DNA of 64,000 nt from Fimicolochytrium jonesii (lineage: Eukaryota). The position numbers and the translations under genes were made by a program. Of the stretch, positions 7,396 through 63,951 are shown piece by piece. The stretch lies in assembly GCF_025526975.1 (NCBI RefSeq), contig NW_026515669.1, positions 1,798,001 through 1,862,000 on the forward strand, in the 5' to 3' direction. Positions within the stretch are counted from its first letter, which is position 1, and the number at the start of each line of letters is the position of its first letter. The notes below the pieces were generated by a model, which was not told where the DNA came from, did no database searches, and worked only from the letters and a program-made list of their open reading frames with translations.

Positions 7396-10820
<3,425 letters not shown>

Positions 10821-53800: not shown

Positions 53801-56000
53801 GCGCCGAAACAGTTGTACAGCACACCGAAGAAGATGGCACCACCACGGGAGAACGAGCCACTGGGTGTCGGGTCCAGTTGGAAGAACGCGGATCCGACGA
53901 TGATGGCCATGACGGTGTCAAACACCAACCTGCCGATAAGCGCCACGTTCCCCTTCTGCAGCTCGACCTCGCGCTTCAGCGCCGCCTTGAACTGCTGCGA
54001 GAGCGAGGTCGTGTACTGCGTCTTGAGCAGATCGAACCGGCCCAACGCCTTCTTGTTCTCCGTTACCTGCGTCCCGAAGGTCTCCTTGCGCTTCTCCTGC
54101 TCGATCTGCGCGTCGATCTCGTCGCGCTCCGCGCACATGTCCTTGTACACCTGCGACTTGAGGTACGCTTGCTCAAACTCCTCGTCGCTGTTGGGGAGTG
54201 CGCCCGTCCAGCCTTTTCGCACGTCGCGCTCGTTGGGCTCCGTGATACCCGTCAGGAAGTCGGGCATCACTTTGCGCTTGGGGCAGTAGAACCCGAGGGA
54301 CTCGAAGTAGGCTTTGGCGTCCTTGGCGGGGCCAAAGTAGATGCAGTGGCCGCCGCTGACGAGGAGAACGCGGTCGAAGAGGTCGTAGATGTCCTGACTG
54401 GCTTGGTATAAACTCAACACTGGGAACAAAGGGTTGGGTGCATGAGCACATCGAAGGCGTCAACACATGTAAGAAACTCATCAGGAACTCACCATTGGCA
54501 GTCTGCGAAATATCGGTCGCAGTCCTCAACGCCCGCACGAAATCCAAGGCACTCGACGAATCCAGTCCCTTGGTACTCCCGTCCCAGAACCCAATACTAG
54601 CCGCAGCACAGATCTGTTCGGCAATCGACACCCGTTTCTTCTCACCACCCGAACAACCGCGGATGTTTTCGTCGCCGACTTTCGTGTCGCCGCAGTTTCG
54701 GAGGCCAAACACGCGGAGGAGCACCTCGATGTGGGTCTCGATGCGTTGCCGGCGGGTTGTGTCGATCGCGCCGCCGACGCGGCATTCGAGGACGAAACGG
54801 AGCGTTTGGCGGACTGTGAGGGGGCTGTAGTGCGGGTCTGGCAGATGAAAGAGAGAAAATACGGTAAGCAACCCAAAAAGAACGAAAAGTGAAGCGCCCC
54901 GAACTGATGATATAAACCGACGCTTACCATCCTCAGGACTATAAGCGATATAAGAACTGTAGTTCTTCTTGAAGGTCACCCGGTCAATGCCGTTGTACCG
55001 CACATCCCCCTCCACCTTCGACAGCCCCTCCGTCACATTCGCCAACGACCTCAGCAACGTCGAGCACCCCGCGCCCGGTCGTCCAAGCACCAGCGTCATC
55101 TCCCCCGGCTTGATGAACCCGGACATGGGCATCAAGATCTGTCTTGCGGGCGGCTTGGGTTTCTGCGTCTTGGTCACACCGCGCACGATCCCCTCCACAA
55201 GCGGCACGGGGTTGAAGATGTTGAAGATCTTGGCGCCGACGGTCTCGATGTGCGGGCGGGTGATGCGGTTTCCGAACACGGCGAGGTTCTTGTACGTGAC
55301 CATGACGGTGGGGACCTTGAACCCCGCATCTCCCGCGACCTGCACGCGGGTGGCGAGGAAGGTCTGCAGGTCAAAGTTATCCTTTGTGGGATCCACGCCC
55401 TTTTGTCTGGGGATGAGGAGGGATTTTTTGGATGAGCGCCGGGTCGCGGTGCTGACGGCGCGGGTGAGTTGGTTCAAGGGTCCTTTCCGCGATTTGCGGT
55501 CGTCGTCGTCGCTATTAGCGTAGTCGACGTCGACGACCGCGGCGTTGGCGGCGGTGTTGGCTGCCGTTGGGGTGGACGGGTCGTGGATGTCGTGATGATC
55601 GTCGTCATCGGATTCGAGGTCGCGGTCGAGTTCGTTGACGCTGATGACGTTGCCGTTGGCGTCGCGGATGTAGAGGGGGGTTGTGAGAGCTTCACCGAAG
55701 AGCGTTGCGCGGTTGGCTTGGCGGATGCGGGCGGCGGCGTCGGCTTCGTCTTCGACTTCGCTGGGAACGACGATGTCGCCAGAGTTGTGGGTTCCGGAGT
55801 CTGTGTGGGGGCAGGGGGCAAAAACGCGGATGAGCATGAATATCCAGGAACGGGATCGCTGCGAGTCTGTCTGGGCGGGCTCCTTGTAGATGACATTGAC
55901 GTCGAAACATACCTGTCGTTGGAACACTCCCCCTCCAGACCGGCGCGCCGACATTGTCGGTCACGACCAGATTGACAGAGCTGCGGTTGTTTGCAGACAT
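50805..56000 (-). CDS. PDR/ABCG full-size ABC transporter, multi-exon
   Basis: NBD1 GRPGAGCSTLL and CSGGEKKRVSIAE; NBD2 GSSGAGKTT, RKRLTIGVEL, LDEPTSGLDSQ and CTIHQPS; two TMDs. Confidence 0.95.
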
Positions 56001-58743
56001 CTGTACTTATTTGCCAACAGAAACCTGGTATGAAAAGCGCTCGATGTTCTCAATGCCCGAGATCGAGATCGGTATATGTAAGCGAATGAAAGGGGCTGTT
56101 GCAAGATCTGAGGGTATGACAACCCAACGAATATTTGATAGGCCAGCACTCGAGATCGAGTGAGGTTAGAAGAGTGAGCGAACGGTGTTTGGGTTGGGTA
56201 TCGGAACGAACGATGGGAATGAATGAACACTTTCTTTGGAACAGGGAGGCGGCCACGAAACGGGGCGTGGACTTTATACTCGTCGAAAATGGCCCTATCC
56301 GGGTGCAGCATCTCATAAGGAACGCCGCCTTGCTTCCCTGATTTCTCATCGAGGCCCACGGTACTCTATTCGCGTGTTGGAGCACGCTTAGATTTCTTTC
56401 AGTGTTGTGGGGGGAGGGGGCGTACTAAGGGGGAATATCCCTGCATCCCGTGGCAAGCACGTCAATTGGAAGTTTACGCTCTTTGCAGAAAGTTCGGCGT
56501 CCGAGAGCGGTGAGGAGGGTTGAAGGCACCGCCCTCGATCGACGCACCCGCGCTGCGTTGCATGCGTGTCCGGGAATCCGGCTGGTCAAAGCATTCCTTG
56601 TTTGCGAAAGCCTTACCGAGTGGCAGGCGCCGCACCTTATCCGCTGGACACTTTTTGCAGGCAGCGAGCGGGAGCCGACTCAGCCGAGTGAGCGGGAGAC
56701 GGGTATGACGGAGTTTTGCCAGACTTGAAATGGTTATCCGTACCCGGCAAAACATACATACATAAGCCCTGGGCATGCAGCGAGGACGCGTGGAAGAGCC
56801 GTTTTGCGAGTGGAAAAAAACTCGCGAGCGACTCGGAGGCGTTTGCGTGTTACTACTATCGATACATAGCACTAGCCGCGGGTCCGTCTCTGCTCCCACT
56901 CACTTCCCCACAGGCTTCATGTTCAAATCCATGGGAGTCAATGGACAGTTAAGTGACTGCAAGTTGACAAGGTACGTCTCGGACGAATCTCGGACACCAT
57001 TTTCGTAAGGACAGCACTCGTCATTGTCGGGGTTTCAATTCTGAACAGACCCACCGATCGATGACTGGAAGCAGCATATGCCATCATTGCCATGACATGC
57101 GGAATCCAAGGCATGTGAAGAGCACCCGCGGGCCGACTGGCTCCCCAAGAATTTAATTTATCCTTGCGCTGCCCATTGCGATCGATATCTGGGGAATTCG
57201 ACACTTTGCGCAGTCAACAATCGCGTTGTGGCATGGAGCCATCTCCGACAACAACAAACACCCACGGACTCGCGGGCGGTGGGCGTCAACCCCCAATCAA
57301 ATATACAAACAACCAACAAACAACCTCGGAGGCTTCGTGCCGAGGCTTGCGGGCGTAAATCCTCTTTTTGGAAGATCCAGAATCATATGCCGATCCGTGC
57401 ACAGCTTGAAGTCGTCTCTCACCGACAGACTCTCCGCTATCATGCCACAGGTGTGAACTCAACACGCCCTCGAGATCGAGCAGGCAAATGGAGATCCGTG
57501 GAAAAGTCACTGCAGGACGCCCAACGCCGCAAAGCACCGGCGAACGCCCCGGATGCATCGCTCAACTTCCGCGCGCACGCCTCGTTTCCATCAAGGAGCT
57601 CAACGACTCTAAAGCGCAGGACAATCATAGCGGCAGAACGCACGAGGCTCGGGGCTGAGAGGGAAACGTGCTGGAGAAAACAGAGGCCCGTGGTAGACCG
57701 CACATTGGAGACGGACGGATGGGAGCGAGTTTGGTGGGCGTGCCGACACAGACGAGTGCCATGTTACATGTGAACATCCACCGTGTGAGAGTGTGCATTT
57801 CGATTCGCCTCCGTGGATTCCGCGCATGATCTGCATATCCAACATAGAGTCTACCACAATTCTGCAGCTTGATCCCAACCCCACGCAGGCGGCCTCGGAG
57901 CATCGATACGTCGCGAGAGAATATGGTCAGGAAAAAATTGCCGCAGGACGCCCCAACCGAAAAGAAAACGGCGACCGCCCCGGATGCAACGCTCAACTGC
58001 CAAAATGTTGTAGATACAAACGTTTCTTTACCCCACTCCTCTTTCTTCATTCAGGAGTCCGACGACGCAACGCACGTAGGACATCTGTCCGTAAGCGGAA
58101 GATAGCACGAGGGGAGGATGCTCAGGCCGAAGAAAAAAACAAGACGGACCGCGACTAGACGGCAAGTGCGCGATGGTTTTTTTGTTGTTGATGCCGGACC
58201 ATGAGCGCGCCCAAAGGCCATCTTATCCGGATGCATGTGCGTCGCAAGCAAGCGATCGCCTTCCCGTGGGGAAGCTCTACGCCCAGCACTGAGATCCGCC
58301 AAATCTTCGACCGGAGCAAAATGCACGTCTCACGTTGCTGCCCACATACATACATACCGAGTGCTGTCACCACATGCCAACATGAAAAGGTGAAAAGGGT
58401 TCCAGCCCCGTGGACGGATGGTAAACGGCCGCGGCAATCAGTTCTTCAAACTGAGGCTTTCCACTCGAACGAACCCCCGCCTGCATTTGCAAGTCCCATA
58501 TCCCCAGTTTCACGCCGCACCAGCGCACCACACCGTTCGAATATGCATGTAGAAGTTGTCACTGCTAGGACAAAACAAATGGTTTGAGATTTGCAGTCAG
58601 AACAACCCATCGGCTCCATCCCGTCGAACGGGCAAAACATCTATATACCCTACGTGAATCCCAATATCTACATATAACCTACTTACATCCCACCACCCCT
58701 CGCAACACGTCGTAATCTACATCTACCGAAAAACGCCCACCCA

Positions 58744-61700
58744 TCATCCCTCCCTCCTCTTCATCTCCTCCAACCCCACCCTCACATACGCCCGTTTCAC
58801 ATTCTCCTCTCCATTCCCGGTCGCAAGCACCGCCACCCGTCTCGGATGTCCATTGTTCCCGTCCCCCAGCATCTCCACCGCCCGCGCCCTCAGCGTCGGG
58901 AGATCGTACGCCTCCAATGCCCTCCTGCGTCGTTCAATCGCATCGAAATGCGGCTGGTCGTCGTCATCATCCCCATCCATCTCGTTCTCGTCAAACGCCA
59001 GATGCTGCATAAACCGCAACTTCCCCGCCGCGGTGTCGTACGGGCTCCGTAGGCGTGCCAACAGCGCGGCTTTGATCGAGTCGAAGCGGGGTTGGAGGGT
59101 GGCGGCGTCGTCGGCGAGGGAGCGGAGGAACGTTTCGGTGAAGAGCTCGATGCGGGAGAGGAGGTCCCGTGGATCGTGGGTGTTGGATTGGATGGCGGCT
59201 TGGAGGAAGAGTTGGTGGGCGGCTTGGAAGCCGCTGGACGAGACGAGGTAGCCTGTCTGTTTTGTGCGCGGGGGGGGGGGGGGGGGGGGGGAGGGTGTGA
59301 GTGTTTGACTGGGGACAATTCACGGACCCACCCCAACTTGAGACGCGAGAGGGGGACATGACACTTGTACCTGCTGCCGAGTCCGCAACTCCGTATAAAA
59401 CGGCTCCTTGACCAACTTCACCAACAACTCCTGCGCCGCCCGCAACTCATAGCTTTTTCTCCCCACGTTCAACGCCCACACCACCGCGTTCCCCTTCACA
59501 TCCACCGCCATCTCATGCAGCATGGGGCGGGTATTCGTGAACGGGCGCACTTTTGTTCGCGACACCTCCGAAGGCGCGCATGGCTGGCCGGGGAGCATGC
59601 GGTGCAAAGTGTCCCATGAACGCCGCGCATCGTGCTCGGTGACGTTGCCGCCGACGAAAGCTTCGATGTAGCGGGTGTCGAAGAGGGTGCGGGAGAAGTG
59701 TTCAAGGTCGGCGAGGGTTATAGAGTCCACCGCTTCTGCGAGCTGCCGCCCATAAAATTCATTGTCAGTTAGCCACGACGGTCAGCAAAAAAAAGGGATG
59801 CCCCACCAACCACACAACCGCACCTGAGCAGAAGTACAATACTCCTCATAAACCACTGCCGACATGCACTCCATCGCCTGCCTCACAGGCCCGTCCCTCC
59901 CCGCATCCCGATACCCTCTACTCGCACTCTCCCTAAAGATCCCAAACTCCGCCTCCGTAAACCCGGGCTCTCGCACGCACCCCAACACGCTCTCCAGCAA
60001 CAACTGCGCTTTCTCGCTGTACCCCTCAACAGAGACCGCGATGCCCGTGTCGCCCGGTGCGACGGCGACGTCGTAGTGTAAGCCCGCGGAGGCGGCGTCG
60101 TAGGAGAGCTCGGTGAGCCGTTCGTTGACGAAGCGGGTGTAGAGGTGGGCGAGGACGATGGAGCGCGGGTTGTTCGGACGGATCTTGGGGGTCTTCAGTG
60201 TGAAGGCGTGCAGGCATTCCGGGACGAGGAATTCGGAGTCGGGATAGAAGTACAGTTTGCCGGCGGGGTCGGTGGGGTTGGTGAGTTGGGGGGAGAGGGG
60301 TTTGTCCTGTTGCACATAAACGTGTGTGCGTGCGTGTGAGTATATATGTATCAAATAGACGAAGCAGTTACACCCGGATAAAAAGAAGAAGCTACGCAAT
60401 GCCGGCACACTACCCGCTAATCCACCCACACTACTTACACCAGCAACTCTCAACATATCCTCCACCCTAACAACCTTCTCCCTCGGCTTCCCCACCTCTT
60501 CTCCTCTTCGCACCTCAACATCATCTATCCGCTTCCACCCCTCAAACGACACCGTCTGAATTCCTCGTGCGTCCAGGAGGGGTTTAACGGATGCAAAACC
60601 GCCGGATGTTTTCGAGGTGGCGGGGGTGAGAGAAGGGATGTTGCCGCTCCGCACGTCGTCGATGATGGTATCGGCGGTCTCGACGGCGTCGTACATGGTG
60701 GCGGCGATGACGCCTGTCGGGCCGCGTTTGACCCAGCCGGCGACGTAGAGGGGTGGTGAGGGTGTTGTGTTGTCCTAAAAACGATTCGTTGTTTATTCAT
60801 GTGAGTTCTCAACCTGGGATGCATATCGCGCCCCCAACTCACCTCATCAACAACCCTCCCTCTGACATTCGGCACCCGTCCCCTCCTTTCATCAAACGGC
60901 AACCCGGGCAACGGCGCGCTCCTATACCCAATGCTCCTCACCAACAACCCCGCCTTCAACACTTCCATCTCACCCGTGCCCACCGCCTTCGGAGCCCCTA
61001 AATCCCCCTCCAGCCTATTCCTCTCCACCATCATTGCTTCCAGTTGCCCATCGTCTCGCGTTTCGAGTGCCACGGGACTACGGAGGAAATCGAGCGTCCA
61101 TGATTTTGTTGGCGGGTTGTTGGCCGGGAAGGTCTTTGTAGCGCCTTTGCGGAGAAGATCCATGAGGCGTTGGCGTTGGCGGTCCATGATGGAGGCGCTG
61201 GCTTTGACGTGGGAGTCCAGGAGGGCGACGTCGAGGTTGAGTTTGGTGTCGGGGAGGGCGATCATTTCTCGGAGCTCTTTTGACGTGAATGCGATCTACG
61301 GGGCTGAATATTCAGTGAACGCCATAATCTCGCGTGAGCACAGAGAAAGCGTGACCCCCCTACCTGCAACGGCCCCCGTCGACCCACAAGCCGCACATGT
61401 CTAACCCGACTCCCCCTCAGCGCCTCCAACGCGTACTCCGTAATATCCGTCTTCGCCAGCTCCTCCACCGGCCTCAACAGTGTCCTCGCCACATCCAACG
61501 CCACATTCCCCTGCCCGACCACCACCGCCGTATCACTGCTGACCAAATCCGGTTTCAGATCCGCATACTCCGGTGTCCCGTTATACCACCCGACGAACGC
61601 GCGCGCGGAGAAGACGTTGGGGATGGTGTCTTCGTTGGGGAGGGAGAGTTTTTGGTCCTCGCTGGCGCCGTAGGAGAAGAGCAGGGCGTCATAGCGGGGT

Positions 61701-63951
61701 TTGAGCTCGGTTAGGTCGAGGTCCCGCCCGATGGTGACGTTGCCGATGAAGGTGAAGCGGGGGTCTTGGGAGAGGAGGTCAAATTTGTGGATAACGTTCT
61801 GTAATGTGAGGGGAGTTTTCTGAGTACGTTTACTTGAAGTTGGGGATCTTGTATTCATCGCTCACCTTGACTTCCCAATGATCCGGCGCAACGCCATATC
61901 TAATCAAACCATACGGGATGGGTAAGGAGTCATACATATCCACATGCACATTAGGCAGGTTCTTCAGCAGATGTTGAGCGGTATAAAAGCCAGCCGGCCC
62001 AGCACCAATGATCCCGACATTCAGCCTCTTGGTCGACGCCGGCGGAGGGTGTGCCGACAGCGAGTACGCGCGGATTTGTGGCCGAAGCGGGTGGCTCTTC
62101 GTCGAGGACACCCGACCACCGACCCCATTCGTGGAAAGCATCACAGGCGGACCGTCACGGCGTGGAACGATCTTCAGATTCTGCGGCACATACGGGTTCG
62201 GCTTCGGGTATTTCACCTCCGTGCCCGGTCCCAGCCCCGTCCACCGCGCAACCTCGTCAGCAATCGGTCGGTTTGCATATTTCGCGCCCATCCACTTTTC
62301 GGTCCTATCAAGCTTGACCTCTGCGTTGGGCGGCGCGATTATCGTGTACATGCATTTATTGGGGACCAGCTCGGTGAACAGGGCGCGCGCGGCGTCTGGA
62401 TCGAAGCGGTCGATGAAGTAGGAGCGGCGGGGGAAGGTCTCGAGGCCTTCTTTGCGGAGGAGGCCGCAGAAGTGGGTTGCGATGGAGGAGTTGCGTTGTT
62501 GGTATTGGTAGCCTATCTTGCGCATGTAGTTTTCCTCCTCAAAGAGGTGCTGCGAATGAGGGACGTCTTGATCAGCACGGCGCTGGGGTGACTGAGCCGC
62601 GACTCGGATCGCAAGACCGCAATAGAATCGACCTACCTCGGGATACGGTTGCTCCGCCAATGCATTGATGGCCTGAAAAACGCGAGAAACCACTCCCCTC
62701 CATTCCCTAACCCCTTTCTCCGTCAACGAGATGGACACCTCAAACAGCAGGTTATCAGCCCCCAGATGGCTTTTCCCAGCCGACAACCCCTCCGCAAGCT
62801 CATGGGCCCTCAAAAGCGACAACAGCGAGTTCGTCCCTTCGTACCCCAACACCTTCGAGGCGAGGTTAGCAGGCTTCGTCGACATGTCGTGGTATTTGAA
62901 CGGAATCTCCCATGAGAGCGTCAGCTCCCGTAGGTTCTTGATGGGCTCCACCCACGTCAGGGTGCCGTGCAGGGAGTCTGGGAACACGCGTCCGTTGGTG
63001 GTGGAGAGGATCGGGACGTCGCTATTTGGGATAGGACTAAATGCCGCGGCTGCCTTTTCTGCAAGCACCGGGATAGAATCTTTCCCCAGCAGTGCAAAGT
63101 TCATCAGATTCGCACTGTAGTTCTTCCGAAACCAGCCCTTCAAGTAATCTTGATCAATCAGCTTCATCGTCTCCAGATTCCCCGTGTTGAACCCCGCGAA
63201 CGGATGTTTGGGGTCGGCCAGTTCTTTTCGCACATGCAGTACGCGCCATCCGTCCTGCTCGATGTTCTTCTTGAACTCCTGGTCCACTGCGTTCATCTCG
63301 CGATCGACGCACGACTCGTTGAAGAGCGGCTCGTAGAAGAATCGCGAGAACCGGTCTAGAGCGCCGTCGAAGGCATCTGGTGTCACGGATTGGAAGTAGT
63401 AGAGGGAGTGGTCGGATGCTGTGTACCCGTTCAAGGCACCATTGTGGTCATAAATGAATCGTTCGTAGTCGTATTCATTGGGATATGTTTTGGTCCCAAG
63501 GAACAGCATGTGTTCTGTAAAGTGTGCCGTGCCATCGTGTCTACAGATGCATAGATATGGGTAAGAACAAGCAAGGGAGGAGACCCTAAACCCCCATGAT
63601 TATATCCCCTGCAACTAACATGCCGTCCATCCAACTTCCTGCCTCCACCGACAGCGAGGCTCCTGTGACGGGCGACTCCTTGTCGGAGATCACCACCCCC
63701 TTTATCCCATTAGGCAGCTCCAATTTCGCAATCTGGCGGTTCTCCAGCTGCTTTGTGAGAACTGGGATGTTGAGGTCCACCGGCAGCAGCTTGTATTTCG
63801 GTGCCGGAGTCGGTGAAGTGAGGGTGCTGGAAGTGAAGGTCCTCACTGACGCTGCTGCTCTCCGCCTCACAATGGCGACAGAGGCGGGGTATCTCCAAGG
63901 CCCCAGCCGCGAGGCAGGCGGCGGTCGCTGGGAGAGGAGCCGCCTATGCAT
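58744..63951 (-). CDS. M16A insulinase/pitrilysin-family metalloprotease, interrupted at its inter-half hinge by ARH1
   Basis: Exons 63951-63620, 63540-62637, 62549-(62124 or 61866), 60306-59824, 59742-59371 and 59256-58744. Motifs HFTEH, REMNAVDQE, HPFAGFNTGNLET, PKPNPYVP and ELRTRQQTGYLV. Presequence-like N-terminus. Confidence 0.9.
60439..62141 (-). CDS. ARH1: NADPH:adrenodoxin/ferredoxin oxidoreductase coding region (~500 aa) embedded in the insulinase gene
   Basis: GIIGAGPAGFY, PYGLIRYGVAPDH, AFVGWYNG, VVGQGNVALDVAR, GRRGPLQ, SIGY, YVAGWVKRGPTGVI and GKPREK. Introns 61799-61865, 61296-61363 and 60775-60842. Confidence 0.95.

Follow-up and report, generated by a model that had tools for sequence, protein, structure and literature searches.

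In a 64,000-nucleotide stretch of the genome of the chytrid Fimicolochytrium jonesii (contig NW_026515669.1, positions 1,798,001 to 1,862,000 of the forward strand; referred to as the window, with position 1 being its first letter), a gene for a complete ferredoxin reductase of the ARH1/FDXR type was found in frame inside a gene encoding an insulinase. On the minus strand, positions 63951-58744 comprise nine exons, which are separated by GT-AG introns throughout and join to a single frame of 1503 amino acids (aa) plus stop codon, free of internal stops. The order in the deduced product is insulinase N-half, complete ARH1 (aa 549-1048) and insulinase C-half. Analysis with Pfam likewise detected insulinase domains on both sides of a flavoprotein, the Peptidase_M16_M profile being split into positions 3-121 before and 124-280 after the insert. 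The observation was confirmed, with every coordinate of the original prediction, a first reading of the same DNA, checking out, and the arrangement is real as far as one assembly can show. We propose with moderate confidence, judging from the sequence, that the locus gives rise to one 1503-aa mitochondrial precursor, which the mitochondrial processing peptidase (MPP) would cut into the N-half of the insulin-degrading enzyme (IDE-N) and an ARH1 carrying the C-half (ARH1-IDE-C), both of which would re-pair as a split protease.

The reading frame can be followed exon by exon. Exon 1 (63951-63620) encodes a presequence-like leader (aa 1-39) and the start of insulinase domain 1, and exon 2 (63540-62637) encodes domains 1 and 2 with the zinc motif HFTEH (aa 117-121, 63524-63510) and E199 (63278). 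Exon 3 (62549-61866) contains the end of the insulinase N-half and the hinge and continues in frame into ARH1, the 5′ junction having no intron; as originally described, the N-half reads stop-free through PKPNPYVPQNLKIVPRRDGPPV into MLST, with M549 at 62141. The ARH1 coding region (62141-60439) extends over exon 4 (61798-61364), exon 5 (61295-60843) and exon 6 (60774-60439), is interrupted by three introns (61865-61799, 61363-61296 and 60842-60775) and lacks a stop codon, since EDMLRVAG ends at 60439 and a GTAAGT donor follows at 60438. The 132-nt intron 6 (60438-60307, GTAAGT...CAG, phase 0) connects ARH1 to the insulinase C-half, and translation of the exons bore out the phase-0 join of its terminal CAG to DKPLSPQ at 60306. 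Exon 7 (60306-59824) begins with DKPLS and a strand copy, PQLTNPTDPAG, followed by insulinase domain 3; exon 8 (59742-59371) encodes domains 3 and 4 including R1329 within the substrate-binding motif LRTRQQTGY, and exon 9 (59256-58744) the remainder of domain 4 and the stop codon. The sum of the exons equals the 1503 aa estimated beforehand. By hand arithmetic, the chance that a random same-strand insert keeps the frame on either side and also falls inside some 30 of 1000 residues is approximately 1 in 600.

The protein searches score the candidates sharing most words with the query and list the best rows, so that absence elsewhere is unproven. Their top match was the public F. jonesii model P0001 (1222 aa), which is identical over aa 1-1209 including both junctions; a different pipeline thus arrived at the same splice. 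From there P0001 runs on into intron 7 (59743-59823, minus strand) and stops at 1222 aa, thereby missing domain 4 and exons 8 and 9; as these two exons match orthologues well, the public annotation is probably truncated. The original prediction had left open whether relatives share the arrangement and whether another ARH1 copy exists. Both parts were present in one of 425 proteins compared, P0001 itself, and no second Fimicolochytrium ARH1 was detected among the best 120 of 7853 matches. All 17 named chytrid insulinase orthologue records, from 15 genera and 748-1030 aa in length, are without ARH1, and the other three genera of the family (Powellomyces, Geranomyces and Thoreauomyces) each possess an uninterrupted insulinase together with a free ARH1, which argues for a lineage-specific insertion. 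Other long ARH1 models (P0406, P0407, P0409, P0411, P0414 and P0222) contained no insulinase part. Scanning metagenomes with the N-half yielded, among the best 80 of 449 loci, a top identity of 45% and no close chytrid locus, and ARH1 was present in none of the 160 loci from the N-half metagenome and genome-locus scans. Spizellomyces punctatus, which has the best free ARH1, showed no insulinase orthologue among the 37 matches; either loss or a search miss is possible.

Both enzymes appear complete. Of the 460 residues of bovine adrenodoxin reductase (1cjc), the alignment with the insert covers 9-459 (E value 1.3e-130). The insert is 61-65% identical to the free ARH1 of Spizellomycetales, and comprises full-length FAD and NADP domains with the motifs GAGPAG (FAD), GQGNVALDVAR (NADP) and GWVKRGPTG intact. 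In the insulinase parts HFTEH, E199 and LRTRQQTGY (aa 1328-1336) are intact, and all four domains of the M16A type are present (Peptidase_M16, M16_C, M16_M and PqqF-like_C_4), including the Arg/Tyr pair of domain 4. Judged by their sequences, all three parts look maintained. Arh1 is essential in yeast. Its role in Fe-S assembly is described in PMC3721309. The insert probably originated from a DNA-level move of an intron-bearing ARH1 gene, as ARH1 has kept three introns and a mis-spliced relative, P0127, breaks at two of the same places. Its ends would be close to the coding limits of ARH1, since only such an insert retains both enzymes in one frame. The coding end coincides with the modal ARH1 C-terminus, 12 residues past GKPREK, and adding DKPLS lengthens the tail to 17 residues, the length found in Powellomyces. 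The last intron and tail of ARH1 itself may thus survive as intron 6 and DKPLS; alternatively, a stop codon may have become a donor.

The original prediction had located the insert in the linker between the N- and C-halves. The insert does adjoin the hinge, but it does not lie in mid-hinge: aligned with human IDE, the N side stops at residue 541 and the C side picks up again at 556, which places the insert at the first beta-hairpin of domain 3. According to PMC10604886, the hinge of human IDE comprises residues 516-541 and domain 3 begins at 542. Thus, 500 ARH1 residues intervene just past the hinge and the insulinase halves are not joined by a short hinge in one chain, as they would be in the hypothetical 1009-aa product of skipping ARH1. 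The structure predicted for the Powellomyces protein, which has no interruption, is confident (pLDDT 93.7) and shows a beta-hairpin at the site, with strands 522-527 and 530-536 following a long hinge loop. Relatives accept 14-17 additional residues at this position, and Polyrhizophydium has a natural 14-aa insert in the same turn. Each side of the insert carries a copy of the first domain-3 strand. The N-side copy PVMLSTNGVG (aa 547-556, 62118-62147, minus strand), identified by alignment to relatives, has the same 27-residue spacing from NPY as six of seven close relatives and aligns without gaps to the insulinase's own strand; the C-side copy PQLTNPTDPAG retains the PQL of the relatives. 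Both copies rank within the top 0.3% of 8-mers of the product yet score in the lower part of the orthologue range, so the breakpoints can be placed no finer than aa 547-556 and 1049-1054. M549 may represent the former ARH1 start.

An AlphaFold model of aa 52-1209, with domain 4 outside the modelled region, was confident for the N-half and the domain-3 piece and in part for ARH1, which was poorly modelled because the alignment contained only two ARH1 rows. The N-half and the domain-3 piece superposed jointly on human IDE 46-692 (~620 residues, rmsd ~3.5, Z 40), and the Foldseek alignment covered the N-half only. As a prediction, the model shows that the insert would be compatible with native docking of the protease halves.

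The features that point to mitochondrial import and cleavage are found at two places, and both partners look mitochondrial from their sequences. The leader (aa 1-39) contains nine basic and no acidic residues, and the first acid occurs at aa 58; leaders of most full-length close orthologues are presequence-like, and those of the eight bacterial-type neighbours checked are hydrophobic and signal-like. Inside the product, ARH1 has retained a presequence-like stretch (aa 549-586, 62141-62028, minus strand) with an MPP-type site, R572-A-Y/S-L (62072-62058), and the conserved SAHPPPAS, which the original prediction had overlooked. The longest acid-free run of the product (71 aa, 545-615) spans the ARH1 junction. 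RAYSL at 572 agrees with four of five positions of the MPP consensus (PMC5063612) and is the sole one of three internal matches without surrounding acids. An R-site likewise precedes (S)AHPPPAS at this place in free ARH1, namely in that of Spizellomyces and in two out of three records from Geranomyces. For internal cleavage by MPP, an internal stretch resembling a mitochondrial targeting sequence (MTS) and a strong N-terminal presequence are required, as stated in PMC8734313. An internal stretch of this kind and a leader whose composition fits a presequence are present here and, together with the acid-free junction and the RAYSL site, led us to favour one cut precursor.

Import would occur via the N-terminal leader, followed by MPP cleavage near R572-A-Y/S in the retained presequence of ARH1. 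The predicted products are an IDE-N of ~60 kDa (aa 39-573) and an ARH1-IDE-C of ~103 kDa (aa 575-1503), which may re-pair as a split protease. Since IDE-C is required for recognising substrates (PMC7956289 and PMC10604886) and the C-half has stayed conserved in this protein, the latter is probably used. Along all likely routes ARH1 would be produced with the C-half attached, and since no MPP-like site was found at the ARH1/C-half junction, it would have to function with a 51-kDa tail. Only tentatively do we extend this proposal to a further one, in which the sole ferredoxin reductase of the organism is the middle part of a protease precursor, MPP makes a single cut, the protease works in trans as IDE-N plus ARH1-IDE-C, and a lasting protease-reductase complex is formed in the matrix. 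In that case each piece would bring a copy of the duplicated domain-3 strand, the one on the N side perhaps serving as a latch between the halves.

Several points weigh against cleavage and re-pairing. The internal presequence is short and has four basic residues compared to five to seven in the closest free ARH1, and the missing MPP-like site on the C-half side would leave the second junction uncut. W637 (61875-61877, minus strand) follows PDH in the motif GVAPDHP, a position occupied by P in 121 of 125 homologues (two have Q, one A and one was unmatched), and could impair ARH1. The C-half was faster than Powellomyces in two of nine relative-rate tests. The docking in the AlphaFold model was guided by uninterrupted relatives in the alignment, and both linkers have pLDDT <50. 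P0001, being derived from the same assembly and stopping early at 1222 aa, is not independent for the DNA. Re-pairing has as its precedent that separately made IDE halves reportedly regain activity (Li et al. in 2006); a literature search, most subscription journals being outside its coverage, found no description of split-IDE activity. In total, 24 of the 27 relative-rate tests (three parts, three relatives and three outgroups) were not significant. The ARH1 part was slower than Geranomyces in one test, and the three significant results go in both directions. Relaxed selection on any part is unsupported.

The original prediction had offered the chimera and alternative splicing side by side, the latter skipping the reductase. 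The tripartite frame stands, based on the sequence, the splice of the public model and the donor score; the splice switch came out weaker. Donors were scored against 44 donors kept by hand from other genes of the window, one of 45 being left out for its wrong coordinate, using self-trained models that are not RNA-checked, and intron lengths were compared to 39 introns kept by eye (64-112 nt), longer ones in doubtful models being left out. The donor at the ARH1 end (60438) scored 6.8 bits, and intron 6 contains a CTCAC branch-like word 29 nt upstream of its AG. As claimed, a phase-0 GTCGGT, preceded by GGG, is present at 62123-62118 (minus strand), and skipping from there to 60306 would yield an insulinase of 1009 aa; the same hexamer, preceded by GAG, is the SEC18 donor at 9033. 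This candidate donor reached 5.3 bits. True donors can score as low (8 of 44), and 11 of the 219 exonic GT sites of this gene score at least as high. The splice would need an intron of 1817 nt, compared to 132 nt for intron 6 and 64-112 nt for the kept introns, and would face a stronger competing donor at 132 nt from the acceptor that both share. Codon usage provided a further indication: at four-fold sites, exons throughout the window shift from C-rich after acceptors to G-rich before donors or stops, and in 17 of 19 other exons of at least 400 nt (one doubtful exon left out) the G peak is located less than 230 nt from the 3′ end. In exon 3 the peak is 93 nt upstream of 62123 and 351 nt from the real end, as if the exon ended at 62123, which also counts against the long form. 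Exon 2, however, has its G peak in mid-exon as well (508 nt) with no donor suspected there. We infer that the long mRNA would dominate, with skipping possible.

A splice switch of this kind, in which minority or regulated skipping delivers the 1009-aa protease and the long mRNA mainly delivers ARH1, released at RAY with its C-half tail tolerated, is therefore unlikely in our estimate, although it can coexist with the MPP-cut precursor. It is favoured by the tolerance of relatives for extra residues at the site and by the grass rps14-in-sdh2 case, which uses alternative splicing (PMC1543663); were skipping enough, there would be no need for ARH1 to be in frame into the C-half. Three other splice variants were rejected. 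The AG at 60392 would indeed add LLLFIRV and then a stop, but as main acceptor it implies a 47-nt intron without branch word, shorter than all 39 kept introns. A linker close to the native one would result from the donor GTGATG at 62144, but this scored −3.1 bits, under all 44 true donors. Retention of intron 6 as a coding spacer was considered because this intron is in frame and stop-free, as had been noted; 12% of shuffles are stop-free and 0.9% acid-free, as it is, but it scores as non-coding. Were intron 6 read through, the product would gain 44 acid-free residues that include an Arg-Ser-Phe motif. Of the gene's eight introns, two (60307-60438 and 62550-62636, both minus strand) keep the frame and contain no stop.

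Loss of the leader with no further cut would leave a 164-kDa protein with ARH1 looped out of the first domain-3 hairpin as an inserted domain. The site, a surface hairpin beside the hinge, together with the natural insert of Polyrhizophydium in the same turn, flexible linkers on both sides of ARH1 and a predicted model docking the halves natively with ARH1 in place, is compatible with such a chimera. Nevertheless, it appears rather improbable, as the internal RAY/SL site and the acid-free stretch were kept and MPP reportedly scans precursors in their unfolded state as they are imported (PMC8734313); the internal presequence with its MPP-type site makes a cleaved precursor more likely than a stable chimera.

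ARH1 might also be transcribed from its own promoter within insulinase exon 3, starting at M549 and giving, without need of the long mRNA, an importable ARH1-IDE-C of 955 aa. MLST resembles the starts of free ARH1 leaders, aa 549-574 could act as a presequence, and 62123-61866 is without the C-run of internal exons. There is no non-coding DNA before M549, however, so that promoter and 5′ untranslated region (UTR) would sit in conserved coding sequence, and M549 may be no start at all, as PVMLSTNGVG aligns without gaps to the insulinase's own strand. We regard this origin of the reductase as quite improbable. Least probable, and in our view very unlikely, is an assembly artefact, that is, wrongly joined DNA or a single-base error near 60438 that masks the ARH1 stop of what are really two genes or an ordinary nested gene: the arrangement is known from one assembly, the donor is exactly at the expected stop position and a one-base change there would create a stop, but an error would need to strike these few bases, both ends are in frame at a tolerant site, exon 7 opens with the C-run of a long-used acceptor, the 20 largest direct repeat families and the 25 longest inverted pairs listed include none that pairs the junctions, and no free copy of either gene from this species is among the matches listed.

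The insulinase has a history of its own, which the original prediction had not recognised. In a FastTree phylogeny of 45 rows, the insulinase parts fall into a chytrid clade (support 1.0) that is separate from the canonical IDE, which these fungi retain as well, and the sister group (0.94) of this clade consists of one Waddliaceae-labelled and 11 unnamed proteins. Among the 16 top-listed genome loci resembling the insulinase, 11 are titled Chlamydiae, two Verrucomicrobiae and three are unlabelled. The chytrid-wide insulinase is thus likely a transfer from Chlamydiae-type bacteria, an old bacterial protease that was likely retargeted to mitochondria, and the proposed protease-reductase complex would rest on it. 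The literature search found no description of a chlamydial insulinase in chytrids.

The neighbouring genes are ordinary. Between 1700 and 56000, Pfam identified housekeeping neighbours (OXA1-like, Arf, SEC18/NSF, Rpr2, SRP receptor alpha, kynureninase, Trm732, IMPDH, MgtE-type transporter, MCM, KH protein, DNA polymerase alpha, FBPase, KTI12, TPT transporter and PDR ABC transporter). In the ~2.7 kb between the ABC and insulinase genes (56000-58700) no gene was identified; short open reading frames are listed there, for which no family scan was made. Past the insulinase stop, the 3′ UTR contains an intron-like segment of 122 nt (58565-58686, minus strand) with GTAAGT, a CTGAC branch word and a TAG end.

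If true, MPP-tailored precursors would extend from head-to-tail fusions to a nested form, and a whole housekeeping enzyme could enter the body of another gene and persist with both remaining under constraint. The locus would then represent a natural test of whether the IDE clamshell requires a covalent hinge and whether Arh1 accepts a large C-terminal partner, and mitochondrial targeting would be one route by which disruptive gene insertions become survivable. As a single-lineage event so far, its generality is limited. The literature search, covering this fusion, this genus and nested composite precursors, retrieved no such arrangement.

Compared to known systems, the protease parts resemble the M16A insulinases and pitrilysins (human IDE, E. 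coli protease III, chlamydial Ptr-like proteins) in HxxEH...E, the four-domain fold and the domain-4 R/Y pair. They differ from this family by the 500-residue interruption at the start of domain 3 and by a leader that is presequence-like rather than signal-peptide-like, and from canonical eukaryotic IDE by belonging to a chytrid clade nearest to Chlamydiae-type proteins. The reductase matches adrenodoxin reductase/Arh1 (FDXR) over its full length; unlike free Arh1/FDXR it has no stop codon, has protease halves on both sides and reads PDHW for PDHP. Inteins and in-frame homing-endonuclease insertions are also whole proteins coded in frame inside a host protein. Unlike these, the guest here is a housekeeping enzyme with spliceosomal introns, and Pfam detected no self-splicing or mobility domain on the product. 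Like rps14 in sdh2 of grasses, the gene for one mitochondrial protein resides inside another and would borrow its targeting peptide; according to PMC1543663, the grass guest lies in an intron and is expressed by alternative splicing, whereas the present guest joins its host within an exon, lacks a stop and continues by splicing into the 3′ exons of the host. The locus would work like the MPP-cut composite precursors Arg5,6 and Atp25 of S. cerevisiae and Etp1 and Rsm22-Cox11 of S. pombe (PMC8734313 and PMC5063612), with which it shares one nuclear frame, an internal MTS-like stretch whose MPP-type motif lies at the junction, and partners that are possibly functionally unrelated. Their strong N-terminal presequence has a possible counterpart here in the leader, whose composition fits. 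Those described are head-to-tail; here no two whole proteins would be released, as an MPP-like site is missing between ARH1 and the C-half, and in the nested form that we propose one predicted cut would divide the host protease in two, with its C-half staying attached to the reductase.

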